Assembly: GCA_045650705.1 (NCBI GenBank)
Contig: JAZRRK010000037.1
Span: 12,151-76,150 of the forward strand
Reading direction: 5' to 3'
DNA length: 64,000 nucleotides
Origin: Clostridia bacterium
GTDB lineage: Bacteria; Bacillota; Clostridia; TANB77; CAG-508
Positions 5,538 to 58,805 of the stretch are shown here, one piece after another. Below the pieces are notes generated by a model. That model made no database searches. It was not told the origin of the DNA and saw only the letters and a program-made list of their open reading frames with translations. The translations under genes were made by a program, and so were the position numbers. Positions within the stretch are counted from its first letter, which is position 1; each line of letters begins with the position of its first letter.

Positions 5538-8168
<2,631 letters not shown>

Positions 8169-8172
<4 letters not shown>

Positions 8173-12085: not shown

Positions 12086-12101
12086 GATTTTTTCCTCCTT
12101 A

Positions 12102-15100
12102 TTATGTTCCTGTGTATACATATTCTACTGTTGCTGAATCTATTATTATTTCTCCTTTTTCTGCGTCTTCTTTTATGAATTGTATTTCTATATGATAGAT
12201 TCCATCTTTTATAATATTTTCTTCTAATGTATACATATAATATTTTTCTTCTGATGCTGTAATAACTCTTGGTACAAATTCTACTGTTCTACTAGATAAA
12301 TATCCACTTGTATTATAAACAGAGTATCTTACCTTATCAATTTCTTCTAATTTATAGCTTTCTGTGAACCTTAAGTCTATTTGAGCTTCATCTTTTTCAT
12401 TTGTAAGTGCTACAATTTTTCCTATTGTGATTCCATATTCATTTGTTGATAATACTATGCAGTCTTTAGTTAGTTGTTTTATGTTTGTATTTTTATTTTC
12501 ATAATCTAACTCTACAGCTACTCTTAATGTATATTTTCTATTTAAATCTACATTCTCTATTGTAAATTTTTTATTAATCTCATCAATGCTGTATGTTCTA
12601 TTTTTTACTTCTTCTGGTGTAATATCATTTTGCTTATCATCTAGTATTGTAACTTTATAATTATTTCCTACAATCATGCAATCTTCATCATAAATTGTTA
12701 TTCTATATTCAATATTGCTTTTTTCTCCATTTAGTACTCTCTCTCCTCTAATTGCAATTACTGGTTCTTCTAGTTCTTCTAAATAAAACTCATGTGTTTT
12801 CTTTCCTAGTTCCAACTCTATCTCTTCTCCTGATACATTTGTAACATATGCAAGTGGAATTATTTCAATCTGATATTTTGCACCAAAATCAATTATACTT
12901 CCTGGATTTACTTCTAATGATTTTTGCATTTCTTCATTAAATATTCTGTCATCTGGTATTTCAATTGCTATTTCCTCATATTGTTGTGTTTCTTCATTGT
13001 ATTTTGTTAAACGATATTTAATCACATTATATCCCATTGTTCTACCTAACTTGTAATTTATGTTTATTGATTTATTTTCATAATCTTCTGGAACATATTC
13101 TACGTTTATGTCACTTATTCCTACATCTGTTAGTGTTGAAAAATAATACATTTTTCCTATTACTTCATAGTCAATATCATACAAATATTTTTCCTCTTCT
13201 ATATAATTTCCTGTTTCTTCATTATACGATTTTAAGATTACCCTTAATTGCATTCCGTAATATGTTTTTGGTGATAAGTTCTCTATTACTATTGCACTAC
13301 TAAAATCTGATAATTTTTTTTCTATTGTTTTTACTAGTACTGGATTAGCACCAGTCTCAGTAGTTTCAAATAAATCAATATAAATTTTATTATCTTTAAT
13401 CTCTGTTTTTCCATCTTTGATAATATTGGCTTGCATTGTAATTCTAGAAAGCTCTGATGTGATTCTTAAATTTCCATTTTCGTCTATCAAGCTTATTCCT
13501 GGTATTATCTCTTCAAATTTTATTATATTATCTCCTATATGAGTAAGTTCTGTTTCATATACTTCTTTTTGTAATATTGTTCCATATTCATATAACATTC
13601 CTTTTTCACTATATTGTAATGTAATGTTATTTTGATATTTACTATTTACTGCATTAATAATACTTATCTGATTTGGTGCTGTGTCTGGTTCACGATAATA
13701 TAAACTTCCCATTGTAGAAGTATTCTCTACAAAATTACCTTCATTATTTAATGTGTAATAGTATCCTGCTTCTGAACTTAAGCAAGCTTTCTGATAAATT
13801 ACATATTCTGATGTTGCGTCATATCCAACATGTCCACTATCATAGTAAGCCTTAACTAAAACTTCTGTTTCTTTGTTAAGTAAGTTTCCAATATCGTTAA
13901 AATTAACTGTTAAATTATTACTATTTGATAATGTTTTTAAATCTGATACGTATCTTGTACTTCCATCTGTTGCATTTAGTATTACTTGGAATGCTGCTAC
14001 TTTCTCAATGTTTGATATATTAAATGTACTTCCTGAACTATCTTGTATATTAATAACTATACGATTACTATCTAAAGATACTTTATATTTTAGGTTTGAA
14101 ATATCATTTTCTTGTTCAAAGTATTCTTGTATTAGTATATTTTCTTTTGATGTAGTATCTTTCATTACTGATTGTTCTACACTAATCTTTAAATCACCAC
14201 TATATAAGTTACTAAATGTTATTGTATTAAATTCTCCTTCTGCAGTTTCTTCTATTTCTTTTGCATCCACAATCTTATTGCCAATTACTGCAACCATTTC
14301 ATTATTAGTTAGAGCATTATCCACATCTTTTAATTGATATTTATATGTTCTTGTATTATTTGTAGAGCTTGATGGGTATAGTATAATTTGAGCCATTTCT
14401 TTCTCTGGTGATACTGTAACTGATTTTAAAACTACTTTTTCACCTTCAATATATGGTGGATAATATATATCATCAATTTCTCCATTACCATCTAAATCTA
14501 CTTCTATTTCATATGTAAAATAATATTTGTTACCCCTTGCTAATCCGTCTTCATCTATAATATCTTTAGCAGTTCCTTTTCCAACATTAAATGTTGCTAC
14601 TGGAATAATTCCATCTTCGCCTACTTCAATTTCGATAACTTCAACTTCTTTATTTGTTGTAGCATCTATCGCACGATATCTTACTTTCTTAGCATACCCC
14701 CCACTATTGTCATATTTTGCCTGTACACGATATCCTACTACTGTACTACTTTGTAATTCTTCAGATGGTGTATCACTATTATAATTTCTTATTGGCTCTA
14801 CGACTAGTGCATCATCTGGATCAGACGGCAAATCAGGCATATATCCATTTGTTTTAATAACAAACATAGATTGTATTATTGGTATCTCATTTTCATATTC
14901 TGTATAATCATACGCATTTGAGACTGTAATTGTATAGTATTCATCTCTGAAATCTTCGTTTTTTGCTCCAAAGAACGCTGGTGTAATTTCTATTGATTCA
15001 TCATAATAGTTAGCTTTTAATTCACTGACATATGGTTCTATATTAGTATCCACAACCTTTGTAGTTCTTCTTAGAGTTCCTTGTGGTACTTCTCCTTCTG

Positions 15101-17474
15101 GTGTCTGCCCTGAATAAATACTAAATACCATTCCTGTTAATGTTTGTGCTTCTAACTCTTCTCCTTCTTCATTTTCTGAAGACAACTGAAATTTTATGTT
15201 AAAAGTATTTTCTATATTTTCTGTTTCTTGTTCAAAATTTGCAACTAAATTTTCTGGTTCTTTTGTTTTAACAATTACACCACCAATATAGCATTTATCA
15301 ATTGGTTCATTTCCATCTTTTAAATCAACTGTTCCATAAACTGCAAATTTGTAAGTTTCATTTGCCCTTAAATTATTTACTGATACTGGTATGTTTAGTG
15401 ACCCTTGTGATGTAAAAGTTTCTGTTTTTCCTACTGAATCTGTATATGTTACATGTAAAATGCTATCATCTTCAAGTTGTATTGTATTATCGTTGTCTTC
15501 AATTACTATTGTACCTTCTATTCTTTCAAATGTTATTTTCTCTTCTTCAAAGCTTACTGTTGGGAATACTGCACCATCCATTCTCATTTGTGCACTATAT
15601 TCGCTTTCATATTCGCAGATTTTCTCATTATCATCGAAAATTGCAACAACCTTATATGTATAAGCCACATTTCTTATAATTGTTTCATCTATTGGAAGTT
15701 CTATTTCTGTTTTGTCTGATTCTACTACTTTTACTGGTGTTTCATTTAGCATTCTCATATCATAAATTTCATATCTATAGCTTGTAATACCAGAGTGTTC
15801 ATCTTCTACATTATTTATCTTTAAAGTAAATTTCCCATCCCTTTTATTTGTTTCATACTCTGTTCCACTAATTACTGGTCTATTTTTTAGTGTAGTGTGG
15901 TATTGTGATATATCAAATCCATTTACCAATATTTGACCATTGTATAATACATTTGTTAATCTTACTTCATATTTTGTGTTAGGATCTAAGTCTTTAAATT
16001 CTACGTTTACCTCACTACCTTTTATTATGCTCTCATTTATAACGTCTTGTGCTTGTAGTTCTTGTCCATCTTCTGTCAATATTTTAACCTCTGCTCTTGT
16101 AATTCCAGAGTTTTCTTCAAATTTTACTTTAAAGCTCATACTCTTGTTGGTAAATACGTCTTTTTCAAAACTTACACCTGTTATGTTCGTTCTGAATTGT
16201 TTGTATATAAAATTCTTTTGATATACTATATCTTCTACTTGATAAGCTGATTCTACTTGCATAATGTATTCTGTATCTGGCTCTAAACTTTGTACGTCTA
16301 ATTCTATTTCATATTCTCCTAAAGCATATTGTGTTTCATATACTGTTTTTCCTGTTGCTACTCTTATAATTTTTATGTTTGTATCACTTTTTAATAATGC
16401 TTCTTCATCTGTTATTTGTAAACCTGCTGTTACTCCAGTTGTAGTTACTTCAAATTTCGTTACTTTAATTTTTGGAGTTTTTATTGTTTCTTCATTGTTG
16501 TCTACTATGTTTGAATTATCTCCACTTCCATTTCCATTTATTTGTGGTAAGTTTTCTTCATTATTATTTTGTTGCTGATTGTTTTGATTTATTGTTTGTC
16601 CATTATTTTCTTGTTGTTCATTATTTTGATTTATTGTATCTCCATTATTAGTTTGAGTATTGTTACTTCCATTATTTTGTATTATAACTTCTTGTTCTTG
16701 ATTTTCTTCTTCATCTTCTTCACTAAGATCTACTATTGTTACATTGTCGTCCGAATCTATTACCATATTTTCCAAGCTCATTTGATTTTCATCATTTTTG
16801 CGAACAATTTTACTTGCTAAATTCATTTCTATACCATCTGGCAAATATAAAACAGTTTCTTGTCCAATAGTCTGATATGTTATCTCTTGATTATATATTT
16901 TAATTATTTCATTATCTAAATATTCAAACTCTAGATATCCATTAATTGTCTTTTCTGTTCCATCTTCAAATGATATTGTTATATCCTTTCCTGCAATTAG
17001 ATATTTATTTGTATCAATCTTCCATAATGGATATGAAAAGCTTAATTGTTTATTTAGATTTTGAATTGTATATTTATCTCCAGATTTTGTTAAAGTTTTA
17101 TTAGCCAGAATATTATAGTAGAAAATCGGGTCACTTTCTATCTCAGTCAAATCTACCAGTACGCCATTTTTAAATGCACTAATTGAGCCATCTGTATAAT
17201 GAATAAAATTATTTTTGTTTGATATTACTTTTTCTCCATTTGTGTCTTCAAATGTTATTTGTTCATTATAGTTTTCTTTATACTTTTGCTCTCCGCTAAA
17301 GTAATATCTTTCTACATCATTTTCATTATCCAATTTACTTTGTAATATATATCCCGAATCCGTAAATGTTTTATATATTTTCTGCTCAACTTTCATTGCA
17401 TTATAAACTAAAATACTAGATAATACTAATCCTATTAATAAGATAATTAAAATATATTTTTTCATATGCTTCAT
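12102..17474 (-). CDS. Giant (1790 aa) N-terminally anchored surface protein made of many FN3/Ig-like repeats.
   Basis: TM helix YILIILLIGLVLSSILVY, a juxtamembrane region, an acidic then N/Q-rich linker, then more than 10 units of ~95 aa with LEPDTEY, LDPNTKYEV, LRANETYKF and LSPKTYYGM motifs. There is no LPXTG or other C-terminal anchor. Confidence 0.8.
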   Translation of the reverse strand: MKHMKKYILIILLIGLVLSSILVYNAMKVEQKIYKTFTDSGYILQSKLDNENDVERYYFSGEQKYKENYNEQITFEDTNGEKVISNKNNFIHYTDGSISAFKNGVLVDLTEIESDPIFYYNILANKTLTKSGDKYTIQNLNKQLSFSYPLWKIDTNKYLIAGKDITISFEDGTEKTINGYLEFEYLDNEIIKIYNQEITYQTIGQETVLYLPDGIEMNLASKIVRKNDENQMSLENMVIDSDDNVTIVDLSEEDEEENQEQEVIIQNNGSNNTQTNNGDTINQNNEQQENNGQTINQNNQQQNNNEENLPQINGNGSGDNSNIVDNNEETIKTPKIKVTKFEVTTTGVTAGLQITDEEALLKSDTNIKIIRVATGKTVYETQYALGEYEIELDVQSLEPDTEYIMQVESAYQVEDIVYQKNFIYKQFRTNITGVSFEKDVFTNKSMSFKVKFEENSGITRAEVKILTEDGQELQAQDVINESIIKGSEVNVEFKDLDPNTKYEVRLTNVLYNGQILVNGFDISQYHTTLKNRPVISGTEYETNKRDGKFTLKINNVEDEHSGITSYRYEIYDMRMLNETPVKVVESDKTEIELPIDETIIRNVAYTYKVVAIFDDNEKICEYESEYSAQMRMDGAVFPTVSFEEEKITFERIEGTIVIEDNDNTIQLEDDSILHVTYTDSVGKTETFTSQGSLNIPVSVNNLRANETYKFAVYGTVDLKDGNEPIDKCYIGGVIVKTKEPENLVANFEQETENIENTFNIKFQLSSENEEGEELEAQTLTGMVFSIYSGQTPEGEVPQGTLRRTTKVVDTNIEPYVSELKANYYDESIEITPAFFGAKNEDFRDEYYTITVSNAYDYTEYENEIPIIQSMFVIKTNGYMPDLPSDPDDALVVEPIRNYNSDTPSEELQSSTVVGYRVQAKYDNSGGYAKKVRYRAIDATTNKEVEVIEIEVGEDGIIPVATFNVGKGTAKDIIDEDGLARGNKYYFTYEIEVDLDGNGEIDDIYYPPYIEGEKVVLKSVTVSPEKEMAQIILYPSSSTNNTRTYKYQLKDVDNALTNNEMVAVIGNKIVDAKEIEETAEGEFNTITFSNLYSGDLKISVEQSVMKDTTSKENILIQEYFEQENDISNLKYKVSLDSNRIVINIQDSSGSTFNISNIEKVAAFQVILNATDGSTRYVSDLKTLSNSNNLTVNFNDIGNLLNKETEVLVKAYYDSGHVGYDATSEYVIYQKACLSSEAGYYYTLNNEGNFVENTSTMGSLYYREPDTAPNQISIINAVNSKYQNNITLQYSEKGMLYEYGTILQKEVYETELTHIGDNIIKFEEIIPGISLIDENGNLRITSELSRITMQANIIKDGKTEIKDNKIYIDLFETTETGANPVLVKTIEKKLSDFSSAIVIENLSPKTYYGMQLRVILKSYNEETGNYIEEEKYLYDIDYEVIGKMYYFSTLTDVGISDINVEYVPEDYENKSININYKLGRTMGYNVIKYRLTKYNEETQQYEEIAIEIPDDRIFNEEMQKSLEVNPGSIIDFGAKYQIEIIPLAYVTNVSGEEIELELGKKTHEFYLEELEEPVIAIRGERVLNGEKSNIEYRITIYDEDCMIVGNNYKVTILDDKQNDITPEEVKNRTYSIDEINKKFTIENVDLNRKYTLRVAVELDYENKNTNIKQLTKDCIVLSTNEYGITIGKIVALTNEKDEAQIDLRFTESYKLEEIDKVRYSVYNTSGYLSSRTVEFVPRVITASEEKYYMYTLEENIIKDGIYHIEIQFIKEDAEKGEIIIDSATVEYVYTGT
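16500..16690 (-). repeat. Tandem degenerate repeats encoding the N/Q-rich linker (NNGDTINQNNEQQENNGQTINQNNQQQNNN).
   Basis: ttgatttattgt.t.tccattatt units are repeated at the DNA level. Confidence 0.55.
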
Positions 17475-23982: not shown

Positions 23983-25254
23983 TTATACATTAAATTCTAT
24001 TGTATAATCTGTATCGCTAATTATATTTACTTTAAACTGTTTTTCTATTTTATTAGACATTGTACTTATGTTTTCTCTAATTATTACTACACATATTCCT
24101 TCTTCATTTACTTCTCTTGTTTCTATTATATTTCTTTCAAAAAAGTTCTGTTGTACATATATTTCAAAATCCTGCTGTGTTGGAAAATATTCTGTTTTAA
24201 ATGTTGTATCTAATAAATTATATGCATTTGTATAATCTTTTGAATTTAACATTTGAATAAACTGTTTAGAAATCTCTTCTATTTGCTCATCTTCAGTATA
24301 TTCAGAGTAATCTTTTAATGTATAATTATCTAGCATTATTCTATAATTCATATATGATGTTTCTATAATTTTATAATAGTTACCATTTTCATCTGTTCCT
24401 ACATATATTTTTTCTTCATCTTCTTCTATTACATTATATTGCATTAACTGTATATTTTGTATCTGTTCTTGTTTTTGGTTAATATAATTTATAAACTCAT
24501 TTATATTTCCAAATCTTTTATTTCTATATTCTTCATCTAATAAATCGTATGCTTTTTGAGTGTTATTATATATTTGAAATAAATAATCTTCTAAATATAT
24601 TTCCATTTGTTTTACATCGTCTACATATTCTTTTTCAAAATTATTGTATAATCCTTTGTTAATTGTAATATCTTCATTTTTTGATAATGCGATTGTAGCA
24701 AAAGTTTCTTCTTGTACTGTTTCCAATTTATATGTATTATTTTGTAAGTCTATGTAAATTATGATAAAACTATCTTGTTCTGTTGCTGTAAAATCTCCAT
24801 TTGCTATTGTTAATGTACCTTTTATATAATATTTACTTTGATATTCATTTTGTGTTACGTATGCTTCTTTTGCTATGTATTTAAAATTATTAGATATTGT
24901 GTAACTTGCATTTCCGCCTAATTCGTTAACTGCATCGGCGTTTCCTTCTTTTATATAATTAAAATATTTAGTTATATTATTTGTTAAACTATATAAAGTA
25001 GAGTTATTATCTACTTTTTCTATTGCTGTGTTTACTTCTAATTGTGGATTATATTCAATAACTTCTTCTTCACTTTCTTCTATTTCATTTTCTATAGAAC
25101 TACTTATAGAATTATTAATATTAGATGTACTGTTAATTATTATTTCATTATTTACATTTTTTTCCGTATCTTTTACACTTAAAACAATTATTGTTCCAGT
25201 TAATACTACTGCAAACATGATTAAAATAATTATTAATAGCTTTAATTCTTTCAT
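23983..25254 (-). CDS. Membrane-anchored extracytoplasmic protein. VirB8/TcpC-like role possible but unproven.
   Basis: 423 aa with N-terminal TM LLIIILIMFAVVLTGTIIVL. The position after the hydrolase matches Gram-positive T4SS gene order. Confidence 0.45.
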   Translation of the reverse strand: MKELKLLIIILIMFAVVLTGTIIVLSVKDTEKNVNNEIIINSTSNINNSISSSIENEIEESEEEVIEYNPQLEVNTAIEKVDNNSTLYSLTNNITKYFNYIKEGNADAVNELGGNASYTISNNFKYIAKEAYVTQNEYQSKYYIKGTLTIANGDFTATEQDSFIIIYIDLQNNTYKLETVQEETFATIALSKNEDITINKGLYNNFEKEYVDDVKQMEIYLEDYLFQIYNNTQKAYDLLDEEYRNKRFGNINEFINYINQKQEQIQNIQLMQYNVIEEDEEKIYVGTDENGNYYKIIETSYMNYRIMLDNYTLKDYSEYTEDEQIEEISKQFIQMLNSKDYTNAYNLLDTTFKTEYFPTQQDFEIYVQQNFFERNIIETREVNEEGICVVIIRENISTMSNKIEKQFKVNIISDTDYTIEFNV

Positions 25255-26579
25255 ACATCCTCCAAAGTATTAGTTATCGCAAAATATTCTACACAAGATG
25301 TTAATACAGTATCTACATCTATCCATCCGGTTTTTCCAGGTTGTGTTGAACTTGGGTTTGATAAATATACTTCATTTGTTTCTTCATTATAATCTAATAT
25401 TGCCATCCAGTGTTGTGAATTTGTAAAAATGCTACTTCCTGTATATTTTATTCCACCAATAGTAACTCCATTTTTACCTAAAACTAAAATTATTACTGGT
25501 CTATTTGATTGTAAATGTGTTATTATATTATTTTTTTGTGTTTCTGTTAATTCTGTTTTATTACCTGTATGGGGTCTACTATATCTTACTCCATATGCAT
25601 TGGCTGCTGTTAATGGATAAAAAGTTGTCAAATCCCCCTCGCCATCTGATATTTTTATTACTATATCTTTTGGATTTATATCTGCATTTTGGTATCCACT
25701 TACTATAACTGCAATACTTGTTAAACAACAACCATCATATTTTATTGTTGTAGTTATTTCTTTGCCTTGGCTATTTGTATATCTGATCCACTCATGTTCT
25801 GCATATGAGCCCTTTATTTGTTTATAATTTCTATATTGTTTTCCCGAATAACTTATGTATATATTGTCATACCCATCTCCTGTTTGTGCTATTTCTCCGG
25901 TTGTAATTATTCCTGCATTTATAGCTGTTTTTTGCATACTATTTACAATATTGTTTGTCCATTCTGTAACAGTTTCATCACCTTCTGGAAGGTATGCTTC
26001 TGCAATTTCTTGTATAGTTGTAAGTCCTTCTTCTTTCCATTTCTTAGCTTTTTCATCAATATTTGTTAGAAAACTATCTAAATTAAAATCGCTACTTCCT
26101 TCTGCTTCTTCAAATATTACTGTTATTAAAAAACCTGCAGTATAACCATTATCATCCTGCCACGTTTTTATTTCACTTATTTTCTCTTTTAGAGCATTTT
26201 TTAATTCTTCGCTTTCAGTATCATATAAATCTATAAAACTTTCAATTTCTGTTTCATCTAGATTCCATTCTTCATTATTAGCTATATCTATATTGGTTTC
26301 CTGTGTAGTAGTAATAGAAGACATTGAAGATTCATCTTCCTCATCTGAACTTCCTTTTCCGCTAATCGGTATTGTAAATAATGAAACTACAACTATAACT
26401 ACTAGTATTGGCCACAATATTTTTAATAATGCTATCATAGTCATTACAGTTGCTTTTACTGCTATAAAAAATTTCTTTATTTTCTGAGCTTTTTTCATAT
26501 TCTTTTCTAATATCTCTTTGCCTCGTTTTAATGCCTCATTCTCTTCTTTTGAATAGTTGTTTTTATTTCCATCTTCCAT
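25251..26579 (-). CDS. Membrane-anchored papain-like cysteine peptidase (C39-like/CHAP-like). Candidate T4SS cell-wall hydrolase.
   Basis: TM helix near the N-terminus. C-terminal domain with Cys in YDGCCLTSIAVI and His in SQHWMAILDY. Confidence 0.55.
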   Translation of the reverse strand: MEDGNKNNYSKEENEALKRGKEILEKNMKKAQKIKKFFIAVKATVMTMIALLKILWPILVVIVVVSLFTIPISGKGSSDEEDESSMSSITTTQETNIDIANNEEWNLDETEIESFIDLYDTESEELKNALKEKISEIKTWQDDNGYTAGFLITVIFEEAEGSSDFNLDSFLTNIDEKAKKWKEEGLTTIQEIAEAYLPEGDETVTEWTNNIVNSMQKTAINAGIITTGEIAQTGDGYDNIYISYSGKQYRNYKQIKGSYAEHEWIRYTNSQGKEITTTIKYDGCCLTSIAVIVSGYQNADINPKDIVIKISDGEGDLTTFYPLTAANAYGVRYSRPHTGNKTELTETQKNNIITHLQSNRPVIILVLGKNGVTIGGIKYTGSSIFTNSQHWMAILDYNEETNEVYLSNPSSTQPGKTGWIDVDTVLTSCVEYFAITNTLEDV

Positions 26580-26640: not shown

Positions 26641-28824
26641 TTAACTCCAGAAATCTTTCATTTGATCATACAAATCTCCTGCATCTTTTTTACTTAAGCC
26701 TCCATAGTTTTCCACATATTGTATGAATTGATTTTTCCCTGTTATTCCTAACTCTTTTGCTTTACTTGCTATTGTTGCATTTCTTGCTACTACTTTTGCA
26801 TCTTTTCCATGTTTTCGTACTATGTCTGCCATTGTGCTTGCATCTTTTACCCCTGCTCCTTTAAGCATGTTATACTCTGATGCTCCTATTCCTGCGTTCG
26901 CTAGTGTTGGTATATCTTTTATTGATATTCCCTCTGCTTTTTCATATGCTTTGTATGTGTCTCCTGTTATTCCATTTTGTAACGCTTCCCTTATTTTACT
27001 TGCATCTGTTATTCCATTATCTAAAAATTGTTGTGTTGCCTCTTTTACGTTTATTCCTTGTGCTTCACATATTTTTTGTATGCTTTCATCTTGTGCTATC
27101 ATTTTATATCCATCACTTTTATAGAATTGCTTATCAAATTGTCTATTACTATATGCTTCTACACCAAATTTCCCCTGTTGATAATCTTTATATGTATCTT
27201 TTCCTAGTTTGCCTAAATTTCCTAATGCATTACTTGTTAATGCTGAACCTGCTGCTACTCCTCCTCCTATTAATGCTGCTGCATCTTTTCCTCCTGATGC
27301 TACTGTTGCTGCTAGCCCAACTGTTGCTCCTAATACTGCTCCTGGGGCTTTCTTTAGTAGACCTATTCCTGCTGATTTTATTCCATCTACTCCTTTTATT
27401 GCTAATCCTTTTCCTGCATTTCCTAGACCTCTTCCTATTCCACCTGAGCTTCCTGAACCTGTTCCTCCGCCAGTTGAACCTGAATTTCCTGTGTCCGTTT
27501 CTGCTCCGGCTGCACCTAGTCCTCCTGTGTTTGAACCTGAGCCATCTCCACTTGAACTTCCTGAACCACTTGCTCCTGCTCCGCCTCCATTTCTTGTTGC
27601 TGTTCTTACTCCATTTGAGCTTCCTGATGCTCCTGAACCTGCTCCTTCTGCTCCTTCTTTTGGTGGTTTTCCTTTTATTTTGTTTAGCATGCTCATTACC
27701 ATTGCTCCTCCTGCTGCTGCTCCTAGTTGACTTGTTGGTGACTCTGATTTCATTCCAAACATTTCTTTTATGAATTTCTCTGCTGGTACTAAGAATGCTA
27801 ATGCTACTATTGCATATAAAATATTCTCTGTTGCAAATGAAAATGCACTACTTATTAAGACTGTATATAGTAATAAATGTACTGGTTGTATTAAACAATT
27901 AAATATGTATTCTCTTAGCCAAAAACTAAATGCTTGGGCTTTTCCATCTTTTATTTTATCTAATGGGTATGTTAATGCTATCATTGGTGCTACCATTGTT
28001 AAAAATGCCATAAATACTACCCTTTTTAAGTATTGGAATGTGAATACAAAAGTTAATATTACCAATGCTAAATACATTACTGTATATCCAAATGCTTCTT
28101 TTATTTCTCCACCAAACTCTGAAGCTTCATTTGCTTTATCTCTTACTAAGCTCATTAATTTATCCGATGTATTTCCATCTAAAGTTGTGCCTGCTACATT
28201 ATTTTGTATTATTTCATTTAAATTTTGTGTTACACTTAACATAAATGCCATTATATAATGTAACATAAATAAAATACATATTGCAACTAACCAATCTTTT
28301 AACATATTTTTGTATTTTGCTTTATCTTGTGCTGAACTGCTACTTAATATTATTCTTATACCTACGTATACTAACACTGATAATAGTCCTACTAATGCTA
28401 TTGTTCTTAATGCTTGATACCATGTTGATATGGTGCTTTGTAAAGCGTGTGCGGTTGATTCTATCTCAGTTACCTTTGTAATATTTGGTATATGCGATAA
28501 ATCATAAGCATAGACAGTAGTCTCATTATAGGTTATATTCTCTCCAGAACAATATACACTTATCTTCACGCATAAGCAATTGTTTTTAACCCAAAAAGTC
28601 GCATCTTCTGGTTTGTGGGTTATGCCATTACTATCAGTGAAAGTATAGCCATATTGAACGATAGCGTCAAAAACCACATTGCCTACTGCATTATATCCCG
28701 TATCATCTTCTGGAAAATTTTCACCTAGTCTAATATTAGACAAGCCAAGATTTTCAAATGCTTCCTCCGATACTCCAGGAATATACTCAAGTAAACCGTG
28801 TTCCATTTCCTTGTACCCAATCAT
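26641..28824 (-). CDS. VirB6/TrbL-like polytopic membrane protein with a long G/S/A-rich linker and a C-terminal helical domain.
   Basis: 727 aa. About 6 TM helices between residues ~140 and 370, then ~170 residues of Gly/Ser/Ala low complexity, which is locally GC-rich DNA (27200-27730). Confidence 0.6.
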   Translation of the reverse strand: MIGYKEMEHGLLEYIPGVSEEAFENLGLSNIRLGENFPEDDTGYNAVGNVVFDAIVQYGYTFTDSNGITHKPEDATFWVKNNCLCVKISVYCSGENITYNETTVYAYDLSHIPNITKVTEIESTAHALQSTISTWYQALRTIALVGLLSVLVYVGIRIILSSSSAQDKAKYKNMLKDWLVAICILFMLHYIMAFMLSVTQNLNEIIQNNVAGTTLDGNTSDKLMSLVRDKANEASEFGGEIKEAFGYTVMYLALVILTFVFTFQYLKRVVFMAFLTMVAPMIALTYPLDKIKDGKAQAFSFWLREYIFNCLIQPVHLLLYTVLISSAFSFATENILYAIVALAFLVPAEKFIKEMFGMKSESPTSQLGAAAGGAMVMSMLNKIKGKPPKEGAEGAGSGASGSSNGVRTATRNGGGAGASGSGSSSGDGSGSNTGGLGAAGAETDTGNSGSTGGGTGSGSSGGIGRGLGNAGKGLAIKGVDGIKSAGIGLLKKAPGAVLGATVGLAATVASGGKDAAALIGGGVAAGSALTSNALGNLGKLGKDTYKDYQQGKFGVEAYSNRQFDKQFYKSDGYKMIAQDESIQKICEAQGINVKEATQQFLDNGITDASKIREALQNGITGDTYKAYEKAEGISIKDIPTLANAGIGASEYNMLKGAGVKDASTMADIVRKHGKDAKVVARNATIASKAKELGITGKNQFIQYVENYGGLSKKDAGDLYDQMKDFWS

Positions 28825-29505: not shown

Positions 29506-31467
29506 TTATCCATTTCTTTCTGCTAATTTGTTTAAGTTTGTTTCCATAAATTCAAATTCTTTTCTTGTTGGTGTTATTTGTAATATTGCTGTATCTGCTC
29601 CTACTTTAAATAGCCCTTCTCCTATTGTACATGTTACTAAGAAGTTTGCTTCTCCTTCGCTTAATTTAAATACTTCTTTTAAATATTGTATTTCAGATTT
29701 ATCTTGCGCTAAGAATAGTTTTGTATCTGATGATGTTAGTACTGCTTGTGCTTCTGGTTTTTCATAGAAGTCTTGGAATCTTTGTGATACTATTGCTAAT
29801 GATACATTTCTTTTTCTTGCACGTCTTGCCATTTTATTTAAAAAGTCTACAGCTTCTGGGAATGGTAATAACATCCACGCTTCATCTACTAAAACTCTTT
29901 TCTTTGTAGCTCTATTTCTATCCTCACTATTTTTCTTTACAAATTTTTCCCATATCCAAGATAATAGTATTTGCTGTGCAAGTGGTCTTGCAAATCTTTC
30001 TTCTAATTGTGATATATCTAAGTTTATAAATGGCACTCCTTCTAATAAATCAAAAGTTGATTGTCCATCAAAATATGCCATTTGTCCATTTAGCTCTCTT
30101 ACATATTGTTTCATAACTTTTTTCAAGTAGCTATAGTGGAATGTATAGTTTTCATCTGTATTTTCTTCTGCTTTTTTCATTAATGTTTTATACCAAGAAC
30201 CTATTGTTGGCATTTCTTTTTTATCTCTTGCTAAATTTCCTAATCGTAATCCACTAGCTGAATCTTTATATAAGCTATTTGGATCTGCTGTTATTCCACA
30301 TCTTGTATATTCTTCCGCTACTGCTTCTGCTATTATTTGTTTTGTAAGCTCGTTTACTTCATCACTTCTTGTACTTCCTCTTGCCATTGTAATTAATGCT
30401 TGTGTTACGTCTTCTATTTTATTTTCTACATTTAATACTGTTCTTTCTCTTCCTGTTATTTCATCCTTTACTTTTTCTTCTTCTATATCAAATAAATTTA
30501 TTATAGTTTGTGATGTTGGACTTATAACAACATTTATTCCGCCTAAACTTTCTGCAACTATTTTATATTCTCCTTCAGCATCTAGTGCTAAACTTTCTAT
30601 TCCCATAAGTACTGCTGAACGTGATATTAATGTTTTCATTGTAACAGATTTACCTGCACCAGATTTAGCAAATACTACCATATTATAATTTGCTAAACTT
30701 TGATGGAAATTATCAAATAAAACTGGTACTCCTGTTTGTTTATTCATTCCTAGAGGTATTCCACTTAAATGTCCTACTTCTGATGTTGTAAATGGGAAAA
30801 CTGTTGCCATAGAATTACGGTCAAATGTATGTACTTTTTTTATTGAATCTTTCATAAGTGGTACATTTGATTGTAAAGCCTCATCTTGCATTGCCCAAGC
30901 TGATTTTATTCCTACTAATGTCTTTGAAAGCTCTGTTGCTAATAATTTAGAGTATGCTTCTAAACTTTGTAAATTATATGTAAACAAAGTTGCAACAATT
31001 GATGCTTCAAATAATTTATTAAATCCTGATGCTATTTCGTCTCTTAAAGCTTCTGTTTCCATTCTTTTTTGAGCTAGTATACTTTCACGATTTATATTTC
31101 CTCTATCTGCGGCTACTATTCTTTCTGTTTCTAATTGATTAATTACTCTATTTAATTCATTTTGAGACCTTGCTTCTGGAACTGGGTTTATATAAATTGA
31201 GGTATTTATATCTCCAAATAGGTACATATCTCTAAATAATTCTGGGAATGTGCACATACGTGGAAGGCTAGATACAAAGAAACTTCTTGCATATCTAGTT
31301 GTATTCGAAAGTATCTCTAAGTGGTCTATATTAGATGCATCTATTCCAGATGGTGCTATTAATTCCTTAACAGTCTTTTTTCTTAATATGTTATATTCAG
31401 GTTCATTAGTTTTTAAATTATTCTGCATTTGTAGTTCTTCTTGTTCTCTTCTTTGTTTTTTGCTCAT
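29506..31467 (-). CDS. virB4: VirB4-family type IV secretion ATPase (Gram-positive TcpF/Orf16/CD1110-like).
   Basis: 653 aa. N-terminal ..LIAPSGIDASN..YARSFFVSSLPR.. pattern, Walker A VFAKSGAGKS, Walker B RVLVDEAW. Confidence 0.85.
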   Translation of the reverse strand: MSKKQRREQEELQMQNNLKTNEPEYNILRKKTVKELIAPSGIDASNIDHLEILSNTTRYARSFFVSSLPRMCTFPELFRDMYLFGDINTSIYINPVPEARSQNELNRVINQLETERIVAADRGNINRESILAQKRMETEALRDEIASGFNKLFEASIVATLFTYNLQSLEAYSKLLATELSKTLVGIKSAWAMQDEALQSNVPLMKDSIKKVHTFDRNSMATVFPFTTSEVGHLSGIPLGMNKQTGVPVLFDNFHQSLANYNMVVFAKSGAGKSVTMKTLISRSAVLMGIESLALDAEGEYKIVAESLGGINVVISPTSQTIINLFDIEEEKVKDEITGRERTVLNVENKIEDVTQALITMARGSTRSDEVNELTKQIIAEAVAEEYTRCGITADPNSLYKDSASGLRLGNLARDKKEMPTIGSWYKTLMKKAEENTDENYTFHYSYLKKVMKQYVRELNGQMAYFDGQSTFDLLEGVPFINLDISQLEERFARPLAQQILLSWIWEKFVKKNSEDRNRATKKRVLVDEAWMLLPFPEAVDFLNKMARRARKRNVSLAIVSQRFQDFYEKPEAQAVLTSSDTKLFLAQDKSEIQYLKEVFKLSEGEANFLVTCTIGEGLFKVGADTAILQITPTRKEFEFMETNLNKLAERNG

Positions 31468-36099: not shown

Positions 36100-36173
36100 T
36101 GGAGCAGGTAGTGGGAATCGAACCCACGTAGCCAGCTTGGAAGGCTGGGGTTCTACCATTGAACTACACCTGC
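36100..36173 (-). tRNA. tRNA-Gly (anticodon UCC).
   Basis: The minus strand reads GCAGGTG-TA-GTTC-AATGGTA-GAAC-C-CCAGC-CTTCCAA-GCTGG-CTAC-GTGGG-TTCGATT-CCCAC-TACCTGC-TCCA. This is a full cloverleaf with encoded CCA. Confidence 0.93.
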
Positions 36174-36256
36174 ATCTCCCTCTCACAGTTTGTTATTATA
36201 AACCTTTTTTTTATAAATGTCAATACTTTTTTTAAATTTTTTTAAAAAAATTTAAA

Positions 36257-36435
36257 TTCAAGTGTAAAGCTTATATATTATAGATTTTAACTTGCGGTCT
36301 CCAGCCGCGGTTTATTAACTACTATACTCTAATTAACTAATACGATAACTACTATTAGAATATTAATTGCACGCCTCCGGCTACTCAAGGGTCGACCTCG
36401 TTTTCAATCTATAATATATAAGCTTTACACTTGAA
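36257..36435 (+). repeat. Palindrome-armed GC-core element, copy 1.
   Basis: 30/30 complementary arms ttcaagtgtaaagcttatatattatagatt / aatctataatatataagctttacacttgaa enclose the conserved blocks ATTTTAACTTGCGGTCTCCAGCCGCGGTTTATTAAC .. TACGA .. AATTGCACGCCTCCGGCTACTCAAGGGTCGACCTCGTTTTCAAT. Confidence 0.9.
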
Positions 36436-36484
36436 TAGTCAATTGACCCATTTACTCTTCACTATTCACTATTAATTATTCACT

Positions 36485-41484: not shown

Positions 41485-41653
41485 AGTTTAAAGCTTAAAT
41501 ATATAGATTTTAACTTGCGGTCTCCAGCCGCGGTTTATTAACTACTATCTTCTAAATTACTACTACGATAATTAGTATTATAATAATAATTGCACGCCTC
41601 CGGCTACTCAATGGTCGACCTCGTTTGCAATCTATATATTTAAGCTTTAAACT
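41485..41653 (+). repeat. Palindrome-armed GC-core element, copy 2.
   Basis: 25/25 complementary arms agtttaaagcttaaatatatagatt / aatctatatatttaagctttaaact with the same core blocks. Confidence 0.9.
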
Positions 41654-42485: not shown

Positions 42486-42517
42486 AACAAAGGCAGCCAT
42501 TCGGCTGCCTTTGTTTT
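42486..42517. terminator. Bidirectional terminator.
   Basis: aaacaaaggcagcc-attc-ggctgcctttgttt. Confidence 0.8.
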
Positions 42518-42851
42518 AGAGGATTATTCTGTCTTTGAACCTCCGATATACGATTCCATACTCATCAAGAGTCTTTTTGTCCTGTACTTTCAATCTTTTG
42601 TACAGTTTTTTCTGCCCCCTCTTTTTAGCATAGTGTATATCTCTTATTATCGAACTTTTTACTTTTCTCACATGTTCAATAGTTTTAGTGGTTATTTCAT
42701 AAAGCCACGGTTTAGTCTCGTATCCCAGAACCTCTTCAATGAACTCTCTTTGTTCATCGCTCAGTTTTTTGGTTACTTCCTTTTTCCCTGCTTCCTTTTG
42801 CGTTCTCAGCTGATATTTCAGTCCTGATAACCGGTTCTGATTGTTTTTCAT
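42516..42851 (-). CDS. Basic 111-aa protein, unknown function.
   Basis: Lys/Arg-rich ORF, visibly less AT-rich than its neighbours, bracketed by two bidirectional terminators. Confidence 0.5.
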   Translation of the reverse strand: MKNNQNRLSGLKYQLRTQKEAGKKEVTKKLSDEQREFIEEVLGYETKPWLYEITTKTIEHVRKVKSSIIRDIHYAKKRGQKKLYKRLKVQDKKTLDEYGIVYRRFKDRIIL

Positions 42852-47358: not shown

Positions 47359-47462
47359 GAAAAGACAAGGGGACGTTCCTTTTGTCTATAGGATTACAGA
47401 GTTTTTGACATTAAATAAAGCCTCAAACCCTATAGACAAAAGGAACGTCCCCTTGTCTTTTC
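47359..47462. repeat. 34-bp perfect inverted repeat with a 36-nt spacer.
   Basis: gaaaagacaaggggacgttccttttgtctatagg (47359-47392) and its exact reverse complement (47429-47462). Confidence 0.9.
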
Positions 47463-51137: not shown

Positions 51138-51316
51138 ACTCACTCTCGCGATTAAATAATATAAATTGAAAACGAGGTCGACCCTTGAGTAGCCGGAGGC
51201 GTGCAATTATAATTACAATAATAGTTCTCGTAATAGTCAATTAGAAGAAGAACGTTAATAAACCGCGGATGGAGACCGCAAGTTAAAATTTATATTATTT
51301 AATCGCGAGAGTGAGT
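51138..51316 (-). repeat. Palindrome-armed GC-core element, copy 3 (inverted orientation).
   Basis: 30/30 complementary arms actcactctcgcgattaaataatataaatt / aatttatattatttaatcgcgagagtgagt. The core is the reverse complement of copies 1, 2 and 4. Confidence 0.9.
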
Positions 51317-55817: not shown

Positions 55818-57053
55818 TTAAATTACTATTTTTAATAATTGCATTATTTCAAAAAAGTAATGCAATACACCTTTTTTCTCTATTGTTTCTTTTGTCTTTA
55901 TTGATATTTCATCTATTATCATATCTCCCTTTCTTACTATTATCTTTCCAACTTCTGTATCTGCTAAAACTGGTGCTTCAAATTCTATTATTGCAGTTGA
56001 ATCTAATGTTATGTTCTCATTTTCTTTCAATGGATACATTATGTATCTTTCATTTTCTATGTATATTTCTGGTTGCCTTGTTACGCCTTTCTCTACTCTT
56101 ATTCTCTTTTCATTTGTGTTACACCAAGCTTCGTATTCACTTGCAACTAATTCCTCTATATTAACTAATTTATAATTTTTATATGCATATTCTATAAGTT
56201 TTATAGAATCCTGTGTCCTTATTTTTCTTGTATCTGCACCTAGTACAACTGTTATTATTTCGAATCCATCTCTATTAGTTGATGTTACTAAACATCTGCC
56301 AGCTTTACTTGTATATCCTGTTTTTACTCCATTTACTCCATCTAAATATCCTAAAAGCTCATTTGTATTTGATATTGTTTTTGGATATCCGTTTATTGTT
56401 ACTGTATATTGCTTAGTATTTACTACTTCTGATATTTTTGGATTATTAAGTGCATTATCTGTAATTATTGCTAATTCTAATGCAGTTGTATAATGGTTAT
56501 CTCTATCTAGTCCATGTGGAGTTATAAAGTGGGTATTTTGTAATCCCAATTGCTCTGCTTTGTTGTTCATAAGCTCTGCAAAATTTTCTACACTCCCTGA
56601 TACACTTATGGCTATTTGAACTGCTGCATCATTCCCTGAACATAGCATTAGTCCATATAACAAATCATTGTATGTTATTTTATCTCCTGTATGTAAACCT
56701 AATCTTGAACCTATAGTATTCGCTGCTTCTTTATCCACAATTACTTCTTCGTTCAATCGGTCTATTCCTATTTGTTCTAACATTACTATTGATGTCATTA
56801 TTTTAGTTGTACTTGCCATTGGCACAGGAGTATTTTCATCTTTTCCCCATAGTACAGTTCCAGAAGACCTATCATATATTACGGCATATCTTGATAATAT
56901 TGATGGTTCTTCATCTTTTTGAGATTCTTGTAATGCTTCATCTAGCCATGTGTAATCCCATGCATCTGGATCTTCTTCTTGAGCAAAACTAGTAACATTA
57001 AAACTAAGTATTATAGTTAATAATATTATTACTAAAAACTTTTTTATTTTCAT
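55818..57053 (-). CDS. D-alanyl-D-alanine carboxypeptidase (PBP5 type).
   Basis: SxxK (ASTTK), SxN (CSGND) and KTG (VKTGYT) motifs, plus a signal peptide. I place the start at ATG 57053 behind AAGGTGA. Confidence 0.9.
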   Translation of the reverse strand: MKIKKFLVIILLTIILSFNVTSFAQEEDPDAWDYTWLDEALQESQKDEEPSILSRYAVIYDRSSGTVLWGKDENTPVPMASTTKIMTSIVMLEQIGIDRLNEEVIVDKEAANTIGSRLGLHTGDKITYNDLLYGLMLCSGNDAAVQIAISVSGSVENFAELMNNKAEQLGLQNTHFITPHGLDRDNHYTTALELAIITDNALNNPKISEVVNTKQYTVTINGYPKTISNTNELLGYLDGVNGVKTGYTSKAGRCLVTSTNRDGFEIITVVLGADTRKIRTQDSIKLIEYAYKNYKLVNIEELVASEYEAWCNTNEKRIRVEKGVTRQPEIYIENERYIMYPLKENENITLDSTAIIEFEAPVLADTEVGKIIVRKGDMIIDEISIKTKETIEKKGVLHYFFEIMQLLKIVI

Positions 57054-57101
57054 TTTTGAAATCACCTTGTATATGTATATTCTGTTTTTTTAATCTTTAT
57101 G

Positions 57102-57278
57102 TTAGCCTAAACCTTACTTAATATAGATTTTAACTTGCGGTCTCCAGACGCGGTTTATTGCCTACTTTTCTTTAATTTAATACTACGATAACTACTATTG
57201 GAATAATAACTGCACGCCTACCGGCTACTCATGGGGTCGACCTCGTTTGCAATCTATATTAATTAAAGTTTAGGCTAA
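57102..57278 (+). repeat. Palindrome-armed GC-core element, copy 4.
   Basis: Arms ttagcctaaaccttacttaatatagatt / aatctatattaattaaagtttaggctaa (26 of 28 paired). The core carries a few substitutions (CCAGACGCGG, CCTACCGG). Confidence 0.88.
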
Positions 57279-57401
57279 TAATGTATTTATAAAAAGTTTA
57301 TCATAATGAATTTTTTTATTCAATATTTTTTCCATTTTCTGTTTACAAATTTTAAAAAAGGTTATATTATATTGTATATTAATATGGAAGGTGGTTTGTT
57401 T

Positions 57402-58805
57402 ATGAATGAAACTGAAAAGTTAAAGGATTTTTTATTTGATAATAAAAAATATGGTTGGGATTCTTTATCTGATGAATCTAAACAAGATATAAGTAAGTTT
57501 AGTGATGAATTTATTCATTTTCTTAATAAAAGTAAAACTGAAAGAGAAGCAACTGAATTTATCGTAGAGATTTTACAAAAAAATGGTTTTGTCGATTTAA
57601 AAGATAAAATGATTTTAGTTCCTGGAGATAGAATTTACTATGTTAATAGAGAAAAATCTGTTTATTGTGCAATTATTGGAGCTAAACCTATTGAAGCCGG
57701 ATTAAATATAATTGGCTCTCATATAGATTCTCCAAGATTAGATTTAAAACCAAATCCTCTTTATGAAGATACCGGTTTTGCATTCTTTAAAACACATTAT
57801 TATGGAGGTATAAAAAAATATCAATGGACTACAATACCTCTAAGTATTCACGGAGTTATAGTTAAAGCTAATGGGGAAAAAATTAAAGTTAATATTGGAG
57901 AAGATGATTCTGATCCTATATTCACTATTACAGACCTTTTGCCTCATTTAGCACAAGAGCAAATGGAAAAGAAATTAAAAGATGGTATTTCTGGAGAAGA
58001 TTTAAATCTATTAATTGGTAGCATTCCTGTAGGGGATGAAAAAATATCTGAAAGAGTTAAATTAAACATATTGAAAATTTTGAATGACAAATATGGCATT
58101 ACAGAAAGAGATTTTGTAAGCTCTGAACTTGAGTTAGTTCCTGCTTTTAAAGCAAGAAGTTTAGGATTTGATAAGAGTATGGTAGCTGGATACGGTCAAG
58201 ATGATAGAGTATGTGCTTATACATCTTTAAGAGCTCTTTTAAATATTGAAAATCCTTCAAAAACTGCTATATGTATCTTTGCGGATAAAGAAGAGATTGG
58301 AAGTATGGGAAATACTGGTATGGAATCACATGTATTTGATACTTTTGTTTCTGAGTTATTAAATAAAACTAATACTAATAGACCTAATCTATTAGACAAA
58401 GTGTTCTGTAATTCTAAAATGCTTTCAGCAGATGTTGATGCTGGTTTAGATCCTATTTATGTTTCTGTATCTGAGAGAAATAATGCTGCATATTTAGGAA
58501 AAGGAATTGGACTTAATAAATATACAGGAGCTCGTGGTAAATCTGGTGCTTCTGATGCAAATGCAGAATATGTTGCTACTATAAGAAATATTTTTGAATC
58601 TAATAATATTTCTTATCAAGTAAGTGAGCTTGGAAAAGTTGATACTGGTGGAGGCGGAACAATTGCCTACATTTTAGCAAATAAAGGTGTAGATGTAATA
58701 GATTGTGGCGTTCCAGTATTATCAATGCATTCTCCTTATGAAGTTACAAGCAAATTTGACATATATGAAGCTTATAAAGCTTATAAGGCATTTTGGAACA
58801 ATTAA
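57402..58805 (+). CDS. M18-family aminopeptidase.
   Basis: I place the start at ATG 57402 (MNETEKL) behind GGAAGGTGG. GSHIDSPRLDLKP, FADKEEIGS and SMHSPYE motifs. Confidence 0.88.
   Translation: MNETEKLKDFLFDNKKYGWDSLSDESKQDISKFSDEFIHFLNKSKTEREATEFIVEILQKNGFVDLKDKMILVPGDRIYYVNREKSVYCAIIGAKPIEAGLNIIGSHIDSPRLDLKPNPLYEDTGFAFFKTHYYGGIKKYQWTTIPLSIHGVIVKANGEKIKVNIGEDDSDPIFTITDLLPHLAQEQMEKKLKDGISGEDLNLLIGSIPVGDEKISERVKLNILKILNDKYGITERDFVSSELELVPAFKARSLGFDKSMVAGYGQDDRVCAYTSLRALLNIENPSKTAICIFADKEEIGSMGNTGMESHVFDTFVSELLNKTNTNRPNLLDKVFCNSKMLSADVDAGLDPIYVSVSERNNAAYLGKGIGLNKYTGARGKSGASDANAEYVATIRNIFESNNISYQVSELGKVDTGGGGTIAYILANKGVDVIDCGVPVLSMHSPYEVTSKFDIYEAYKAYKAFWNN

Follow-up and report, generated by a model that had tools for sequence, protein, structure and literature searches.

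A proposed family of MITE-like foldback DNA elements between genes of an uncultured Clostridia bacterium

The window analyzed in this study is a stretch of 64,000 nucleotides (nt) from a Clostridia bacterium (assembly GCA_045650705.1, contig JAZRRK010000037.1). It consists of a 28-kb chromosomal backbone and a part of about 35 kb that resembles an integrated conjugative element. Four homologous non-coding elements of 169-181 bp, each closed by inverted arms, lie in the backbone, and none occurs in the conjugative-element-like part. A repeat finder grouped the four copies (c1 to c4) as one family and recovered their arms as inverted repeats (31 nt at 100%; 35 nt at 94%). Pfam scans identified the neighboring genes as ppdK, dxs, acyl-ACP thioesterase, hydA and nuoF-like hydrogenase genes, ykuD, D-Ala-D-Ala carboxypeptidase (dac) and M18 aminopeptidase. 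The plus strand of c1 (ATTTTAACTTGCGG...) is designated strand A, and its complement (GATTGMAAACGAGGTCGACC...) strand B. An earlier account made from the letters alone, hereafter the sequence-only reading, had placed copies at these four sites; all are present, with ends that agree to within 1-5 nt.

36256..36436, plus (strand A on plus): c1, whole element, 181 bp, between the ppdK terminator and the promoter of the tRNA at 36103-36173
41485..41653, plus (strand A on plus): c2, whole element, 169 bp, its complement in the dxs leader
51138..51316, minus (strand A on minus): c3, whole element, 179 bp, between the hydA terminator and ykuD
57102..57278, plus (strand A on plus): c4, whole element, 177 bp, in the divergent spacer between dac and the M18 aminopeptidase gene

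These elements are a real, non-random feature of the DNA. Their G+C content is 33-36%, versus 29.5% for the window. Each reading frame contains 3-11 stop codons, in line with the earlier statement that every frame is full of stops, and no run free of them exceeds 45 codons. The sequences GGTCGACC, GTCGAC and CCGCGG are found only inside the elements and nowhere else in the 64 kb. The shared core blocks had been quoted correctly, except for small variations in c3 and c4 and the absence of CCGCGG from c4. The predicted fold of c1 has z = -9.4 on one strand and -9.1 on the other, and none of 200 shuffled sequences was equally stable.

The position of the copies relative to promoters could be defined at several loci. 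The tRNA promoter beside c1 matches the consensus at 12/12 positions. The dxs promoter (41695-41667, minus strand; 11/12 match) is conserved in every relative; 13 nt separate its -10 box from c2, and 24 nt separate c2 from the dxs ATG (41460). Because the promoter lies 13 nt ahead of c2, we infer that dxs mRNA must begin with strand B of c2. Copy c3 follows the hydA terminator. The probable dac ATG (57053) lies 48 nt downstream of c4, and the M18 promoter (57342-57370) lies between c4 and the M18 gene, whose start at 57402 is given by a 100% identical database protein of 467 amino acids. Since the M18 promoter intervenes, c4 is probably part of the dac leader, as strand B. The genomic contexts in the sequence-only reading were as described, except that the label of divergent promoter was imprecise for c4, which lies upstream of the M18 promoter. 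Overall, c2 probably belongs to the dxs leader and c4 to the dac leader; these essential or cell-wall genes are thus apparently transcribed through a 25-30 bp hairpin, and their expression should be affected. No conserved promoter or terminator delimiting the element was found in the flanks of the window copies. The mechanically assigned open reading frame (ORF) starts at 57306-57404 and 57053-57065 are too far upstream: M18 really starts at 57402, and the dac start is probably ATG 57053, behind an AAGGTGA ribosome-binding site.

Related loci were obtained from the DNA that surrounds homologues of Dxs and M18. Identity to Dxs reaches 86% in the best homologue, and every close match is from a metagenome. 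Three further copies were found in these contigs. One is an ortholog of c2, present in L020/L021 at the identical nucleotide position and with the same arms. The other two are diverged (core 59-72% identical) and occur in a single lineage.

L006 9722-9916: L006a, arms 35/37, in the thioesterase-dxs spacer at a position different from that of c2; also in L007
L006 2262-2440: L006b, arms 29/29, elsewhere in the lineage; also in L007

All seven family members are 169-195 bp long and contain no ORF. The sense strand is B for c1, c2, c4 and L006a and A for c3 and L006b; because strand A is sense for c3, the family has no consistent sense strand.

Empty sites were sought in the relatives and were found for c2, c3 and c4. 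The thioesterase-dxs spacer, which measures 300 bp where it includes c2 (window, L020/L021), is 107-117 bp long and element-free in L003, L017, L022 and L023. The c3 site (hydA-ykuD) is empty in L023, as is the c4 site (dac-M18) in L031 and L029. Within 21 kb around M18, the L006 lineage carries no copy. A pre-existing palindrome was absent from all empty sites examined, and thus the arms belong to the inserted unit. Insertion into a palindrome or terminator loop already present at the site was rejected on the same grounds. Copying of the outer arms from the target flank was also rejected, since the outer arm of c3 has no counterpart in the empty L023 site. The moving unit is therefore the whole palindrome: a variable outer arm of 9-21 bp, an inner arm of about 16 bp, an inner helix (P2) and a core of 124-126 nt. 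Together, the filled and empty sites, the differing positions in different lineages and the presence of subfamilies indicate a mobile or formerly mobile DNA insertion.

Target-site duplications, which were also sought, are not consistent across the family. Flanking direct repeats were seen for L006a (TAATACTT twice, 8/8) and, weakly, for c4 (CATTA/CATAA). None was seen in c1, c2, c3 or L006b, and there is no fixed length.

In L023, five tandem units of about 44 bp, each with a GC-rich hairpin (GTAGGGGCGGGGTTCCACCCCCGCCC...), fill the ppdK-tRNA spacer (14550-14760). They represent a different repeat family at the site where the window carries c1. In L006, a UPF0236-type transposase fragment and a 362-aa ORF without a family match lie right after dxs (11861-13963), where ppdK is located in the window.

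The arms of each copy form a long closing helix (P1). The arm pairing claimed in the sequence-only reading was upheld by direct counting, which gave 31/31, 25/25, 30/30 and 26/28 for c1 to c4.

36256..36286: c1 left arm, 31/31 complementary to 36406-36436
36406..36436: c1 right arm, partner of the left arm
41485..41509: c2 left arm, 25/25 (the L020 ortholog pairs 28/28)
41629..41653: c2 right arm, partner of the left arm
51138..51167: c3 arm, 30/30; its outer 14 bp (ACTCACTCTCGCGA) show no relation to the outer arms of c1, c2 and c4
51287..51316: c3 partner arm
57102..57129: c4 left arm, 26/28
57251..57278: c4 right arm, partner of the left arm

When extended to 35 nt, the c3 arms still pair at 94%. 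The inner ~16 bp of P1 are conserved (TTAAATAATATAGATT) and the outer 9-21 bp are locus-specific. Inside P1, and separated from it by a small internal loop in the seven-sequence alignment, is the second helix, P2. Its two sides in c1 are as follows.

36289..36299, plus (strand A): c1 P2, 5' side, AAC-TTGC-GGTC
36394..36402, plus (strand A): c1 P2, 3' side, GACC-TC-GTT

Here AAC pairs with GTT, G with C, and GGTC with GACC, around a conserved C.T mismatch (A.G on the other strand). In L006a and L006b, AAC:GTT is replaced by AAT:ATT, G:C by A:T, and GGTC:GACC by GGCC:GGCC, with the mismatch kept. These changes amount to three compensated positions and no one-sided change.

Over the seven members, 98.1% of the 264 cells of P1 and P2 are paired (slid controls, 29-41%), and 21 of the 45 pairs have changed on both sides, a result matched by none of 500 shuffles. 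Only 1-2 of the 264 cells are G.U. With pairing this exclusively Watson-Crick, both strands are equally foldable. The sequence-only reading had described covariation on a long closing helix, which is true as counted and is of two kinds. Part of it is point-wise compensation, seen in c1, c2 and c4, whose outer arms are homologous. The remainder is wholesale replacement of the outer 9-21 bp with the inner ~16 bp kept, as in c3, L006a and L006b, whose outer arms are unrelated.

The core measures 124, 124, 124, 124, 126, 126 and 126 nt in the seven copies, and the between-subfamily identity is only 59-72%. GC-rich blocks occupy fixed positions within it. Two small GC hairpins (GCC-GGA-GGC, GCCC-AAAAGC-GGGC and GCC-GAGGA-GGC) have kept their stems and changed their loops. 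Consensus folding of the core gave no convincing internal fold on either strand (-6.7 and -7.2 kcal/mol). The sole invariant stretch of the AT-rich middle is yrCGAnAAyTA (strand A), which is located at the dyad center in every copy.

36341..36351, plus: c1 central motif, TACGATAACTA, positions 86-96 of 181
41564..41574, plus: c2 central motif, TACGATAATTA, positions 80-90 of 169; with the preceding TAC it reads TACTACGAT
51222..51232, minus: c3 central motif, TACGAGAACTA on minus, positions 85-95 of 179
57184..57194, plus: c4 central motif, TACGATAACTA, positions 83-93 of 177; TACTACGAT with its 5' context

A P2 that covaries around a conserved mismatch, together with a motif on the dyad, argues that intrastrand folding matters and that the elements are not merely duplex inverted repeats.

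The copy upstream of dxs is strongly conserved. It differs from its L020 ortholog at 5 of 169 positions (96-97% identity), and none of the differences is in the inner arms, P2 or the GC blocks; two extra substitutions at the outer arm tip leave the window copy with arms of 25 bp, compared with 28 bp in the ortholog. Identity is 87.5% in the flanking spacer and 67% and 72% at fourfold-degenerate sites of the two genes on either side. Concerted evolution among paralogs was rejected as the cause, because paralogs within the window are only 87-91% identical versus 96-97% for the orthologs. An ORF of unassigned function 1 kb away, orf111 (window 42516-42851 vs L020 1318-1653), is 97% identical at fourfold sites, versus 67-81% for its neighbors, which suggests a recent local recombination or transfer tract. 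Given this, recent exchange of the c2 segment may also account for its identity. The fixed c2 copy thus reflects either purifying selection or recent exchange of the segment. The copy appears to be kept by selection and may have been adopted by the host.

These observations could be explained by a family of structured noncoding RNAs or cis-acting RNA leaders, in which P1 and P2 are RNA helices, the GC blocks and the central motif are RNA sites, and copies spread by duplication or as mobile RNA genes. Strong helix covariation, fold z-scores near -9, the location of c2 in the dxs 5' leader just past a conserved promoter and probably of c4 in the dac leader, the small GC hairpins with kept stems and changed loops, and a c2 ortholog that is 97% identical while fourfold sites of its neighbors are 67-72% identical are all what such an RNA would show. 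However, pairing is Watson-Crick on both strands with 1-2 G.U in 264 cells, and the near-absence of G.U pairs is unusual for RNA under selection. In addition, the 124-126 nt core has no supported fold on either strand, the sense strand varies, the unit has no conserved delimiting promoter or terminator, and Rfam gave no match even at E = 10. A perfect RNA duplex of 25-37 bp, as the arms would form, would be an RNase III substrate and not a stable scaffold. Watson-Crick symmetry, mixed orientation, the lack of a core fold, and a constant-length core with fixed blocks instead argue for selection on folded DNA with protein-recognition blocks. An RNA family is therefore an unlikely explanation.

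We propose, with a probability of roughly 0.55, that the four copies and their relatives represent a new family of non-autonomous foldback DNA elements, similar to MITEs (miniature inverted-repeat transposable elements), which are recognized by a trans-acting, structure-specific enzyme. Of the three options offered in the sequence-only reading, a foldback or MITE-like element fits best, given the empty sites, the different sites in different lineages, the Watson-Crick stems and the mixed orientation. The option of a noncoding RNA was weakened by the missing Rfam match, the absent core fold, the few G.U pairs and the mixed sense, and the option of a protein-bound cruciform is compatible with, and overlaps, the foldback reading. 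As far as seen, the family occurs only in uncultured, spore-forming Firmicutes with low-GC genomes, which form a narrow clade represented in metagenomes of the gut or rumen.

Under this proposal, selection would act on intrastrand DNA pairing, in a single-stranded DNA (ssDNA) hairpin or an extruded cruciform, together with sequence blocks at fixed spacing, and the enzyme, encoded elsewhere, would recognize both fold and blocks. Arm pairing would be maintained because copies whose stems are no longer intact would fail to propagate, and repair or conversion of one arm on the template of the other may contribute. Once inserted, the elements would be passengers in transcripts, where a 25-30 bp 5' hairpin may alter mRNA processing or stability (of dxs, and probably dac).

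Several points weigh against this proposal. Target-site duplications are inconsistent and the outermost arm nucleotides vary between copies, so that classical MITE hallmarks are missing. The core of c3 is 89% identical to those of c1 and c2, yet its outer arms are unrelated, a discordance between core and arm relationships. The strong conservation of c2 is unexpected for a selfish, dead-on-arrival insertion and points to a host role or recent recombination. Neither an autonomous partner nor a candidate enzyme was found in the 64-kb window or in the roughly 0.3 Mb searched in relatives, and the conjugative-element region of the window gave no relaxase, Rep or transposase match. Finally, the sample is small, with six independent insertions in three subfamilies.

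If the proposal is true, the family would be a well-delimited addition to the few Gram-positive intergenic foldback repeats. It would also provide an unusually clean natural experiment, with orthologous sites that carry or lack the element, three diverged subfamilies, a stem that covaries around its conserved mismatch, and a core of fixed length. Two questions are opened by it: how palindromic arms stay complementary while diverging (by selection on the folded single strand or by arm-to-arm templating), and which enzyme moves MITE-like elements that lack conserved termini or target duplications. Should the family be merely a decaying MITE, its value would be modest and mainly annotational.

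A mechanistic version of the foldback proposal is suggested by the central motif. A Rep-like, relaxase-like or Y1-transposase-like HUH endonuclease would nick the motif in the apical loop and mobilize or replicate the element as ssDNA, with arms regenerated from one another in a manner resembling a rolling hairpin. In pMV158-family plasmids, RepB cleavage of the nick sequence 5'-TACTACG/AC-3' requires that the sequence lie unpaired in an extruded hairpin loop (PMC1851628). The elements would likewise place a conserved short motif, TACTACGA(C/T), in the loop of an inverted repeat, where extrusion as a hairpin would be needed to make it a substrate. When the pMV158 nick sequence (TACTACGAC) was compared with the dyad center, TACTACGAT was found in c2, c4 and L020 only, matching 8/9 positions of TACTACG/AC; the apex reads TAATACGAT in c1 and TATTACGAG in c3. 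The location of an invariant motif exactly at the dyad apex, a Watson-Crick-only stem with conserved irregularities, and arms of variable length that are nearly always perfect also agree with such an enzyme. HUH-mediated transposition leaves no consistent target-site duplication, as is the case here.

The resemblance to the nick sequence, however, was noticed after the fact, and two chance occurrences of the 8-mer lie elsewhere in the window. The motif is not kept in the diverged copies, where the apex reads GCGCGAC (L006a) and ACGCGAA (L006b) and only CGA and AAyTA are common. Its unpaired probability in predicted folds is only moderate (0.37-0.87). No Rep, relaxase or Y1 transposase gene was detected in the window or related loci, and neither an adjacent rep gene nor a direct-repeat bind locus was found beside the copies, whose neighbors are ppdK, dxs, thioesterase, hydA, ykuD, dac and M18 genes. 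In contrast to the pMV158 double-strand origin, the elements are chromosomal, multi-copy and longer-armed. We regard nicking by an HUH enzyme as improbable, more so than an RNA function. The same low standing is given to its fullest form, a new type of foldback transposon in which an enzyme, plausibly an HUH endonuclease, nicks the apex motif of a cruciform or ssDNA hairpin, the element moves as ssDNA, and some copies are domesticated as leader hairpins (as upstream of dxs). In this form one arm would be resynthesized on the other, which would yield near-perfect arms of variable length that are locus-specific.

A plasmid single-strand origin of the ssoA type was excluded. In ssoA, the stem carries the signature RSB (TTATGCCGAGAAAATTT) and the loop the signature CS-6 (TAGCGT) (PMC4598088). 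Both are absent from both strands of every copy, which also speaks against the HUH version, and the likeness is limited to the general layout of a long hairpin with a conserved loop motif. Ends of the IS200/IS605 type were rejected as well. A likeness of CCGGCTACTC to what we take to be the pT181 origin hairpin was unconfirmed by literature search and was not used.

The layout of the copies also resembles that of invertons. In Bacteroides and Clostridioides difficile, invertons comprise about 150-230 bp between inverted repeats of 19-35 bp. In an inverton family, a recombinase would flip the ~125 bp core between the arms, turning a promoter or terminator to or from the gene, and recombination would keep the arms identical. 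The size and layout are similar to those of known invertible promoter regions, all copies lie just upstream of genes, the repeats match each other although they differ from locus to locus, the core is found in both orientations among the loci, and the inner arm shows the conservation expected of a recombinase site. Strand B contains a promoter-like TTGAGT-17-TATTAT/TATAAT (9-10/12 matches), and strand A a terminator-like hairpin, TTGCGGTCTCCAGCCGCGG, followed by TTTATT. However, such promoter-like matches occur at the background rate (22 vs 26 expected and 39 vs 36.5 expected in two regions). Complementarity runs on into the core, through P2 and its conserved mismatch, and the motif on the dyad points to a hairpin and not a flip; locus-specific outer arms outside the conserved site would have no role. 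Unlike invertons, the elements are inserted units whose cores are homologous across loci. No inversion was observed: one orientation is present in the three assemblies with c2 (window, L020, L021) and in the two with the L006 copies (L006, L007), although assemblies show the majority form only. No recombinase gene was seen near any copy. An inverton family is the least probable of the readings weighed here.

A second, unrelated foldback at 47359-47462 counts in favor of invertons. It consists of 34-bp perfect arms around 36 nt with a TTGACA box and lies about 20 nt before the start (47338) of the methionine gamma-lyase gene. It is also an insertion, because the spacer is only 46-56 bp long in L022 and L023, and it could be an invertible promoter.

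Among described repeats, the closest analogue of the family is bcr1, reportedly described by Okstad 2004 and Klevan 2007. This repeat of the Bacillus cereus group is about 155 bp long, mobile and transcribed, with compensatory changes that keep a cruciform-like fold; 5-bp direct repeats flank each copy, and the fold has two independent stem-loops (PMC3184786). Both bcr1 and the elements are intergenic non-coding repeats of Firmicutes with uneven strain distribution, compensatory changes and no known transposase. The elements differ in having no regular 5-bp repeats, one long closing stem plus P2, locus-specific outer arms and a core of constant length. They showed no similarity to anything in the plasmid collection, a search that tests a relation to bcr1 only indirectly.

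Correia/NEMIS of Neisseria, ERIC of enterobacteria and RUP of pneumococcus are classical bacterial MITEs (PMC3184786). Like these, the elements are 100-200 bp long, form an inverted-repeat hairpin when transcribed, occupy intergenic or 5' leader sites and show insertion polymorphism. Correia, ERIC and RUP can bring promoters or terminators with them and change what happens to an mRNA. Their termini are conserved and their target duplication is TA or short, whereas in the elements the conserved parts are internal and the outer 9-21 bp vary. Compared with the classical definition, the elements are small, non-coding and multi-copy, with presence/absence polymorphism (empty in L003, L017, L022, L023, L029 and L031); a shared terminal sequence was not found, as only the inner ~16 bp are common. 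Since two MITE-defining features, conserved termini and target duplication, are lacking, we do not file the family under any named family and consider it previously undescribed. Within this broadly known kind of element, its unusual properties are outer arms that are perfect although locus-specific, a core of fixed length, a motif centered on the dyad and the apparent selection on a leader copy.

Two further repeat classes were rejected. REP/REPIN sequences consist of two inverted units of GTAG and a GC-hairpin, and here a single GAGTAGCC-plus-hairpin is present on strand B only and is absent in L006b. Integron attC sites carry RYYYAAC / GTTRRRY boxes; P2 has AAC/GTT, and the adjacent bases neither fit the boxes nor are complementary. 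The copies are dispersed in both orientations among housekeeping genes, unlike attC sites, which occur in cassette arrays with an integrase.

With Rfam 15, only the tRNA was matched in the whole window at gathering score, and the regions of c1, L006a and L006b, searched to E = 10, gave only weak long-hairpin artefacts (plant miRNA precursors and CAESAR) far below gathering; this search, proposed with the sequence-only reading, thus assigned the family to no Rfam entry. The window-type core pattern had two isolated matches, presumed to be chance, in 185,579 species-representative genomes (Hoeflea and a deltaproteobacterial metagenome-assembled genome). Two metagenome pattern scans had no matches and are weak, since the collection evidently does not hold the L006 contig, which fits the second pattern. 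Two viral-contig scans gave only chance matches inside coding sequence, and BLAST of c1, L006a and L006b against plasmids and phages returned nothing relevant.

A covariance model searched on 239 kb of related DNA found no more full copies and only an 81-nt mini-palindrome in L023 (5634-5714, minus strand; E = 0.0013). It has 23-bp perfect AT-rich arms resembling the inner arms of c3 (…TATAAATTGAGG) and a 35-nt core with ATCGTAG, and it may be a miniature relative of the family.

The conjugative-element-like part (window 1-35600) lies beside the tRNA at 36103-36173 and contains no foldback copy. Among its genes are those for a VirB4/TraG-P-loop ATPase (29506-31467), for a C39-like peptidase (25251-26579) and for a conjugation membrane protein similar to pLS20_p028 (26641-28824). 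Several of its ORFs are very large and had no family match (971-4495, 12102-17474). In L023, type IV secretion system genes are found at the same tRNA, together with a repeat of the tRNA 3' end. Three genes at 6030-9512 of the window, inside the putative conjugative element, resemble those for the alpha, beta and gamma subunits of F1-ATPase; genes for further ATP-synthase subunits were not recognized nearby.

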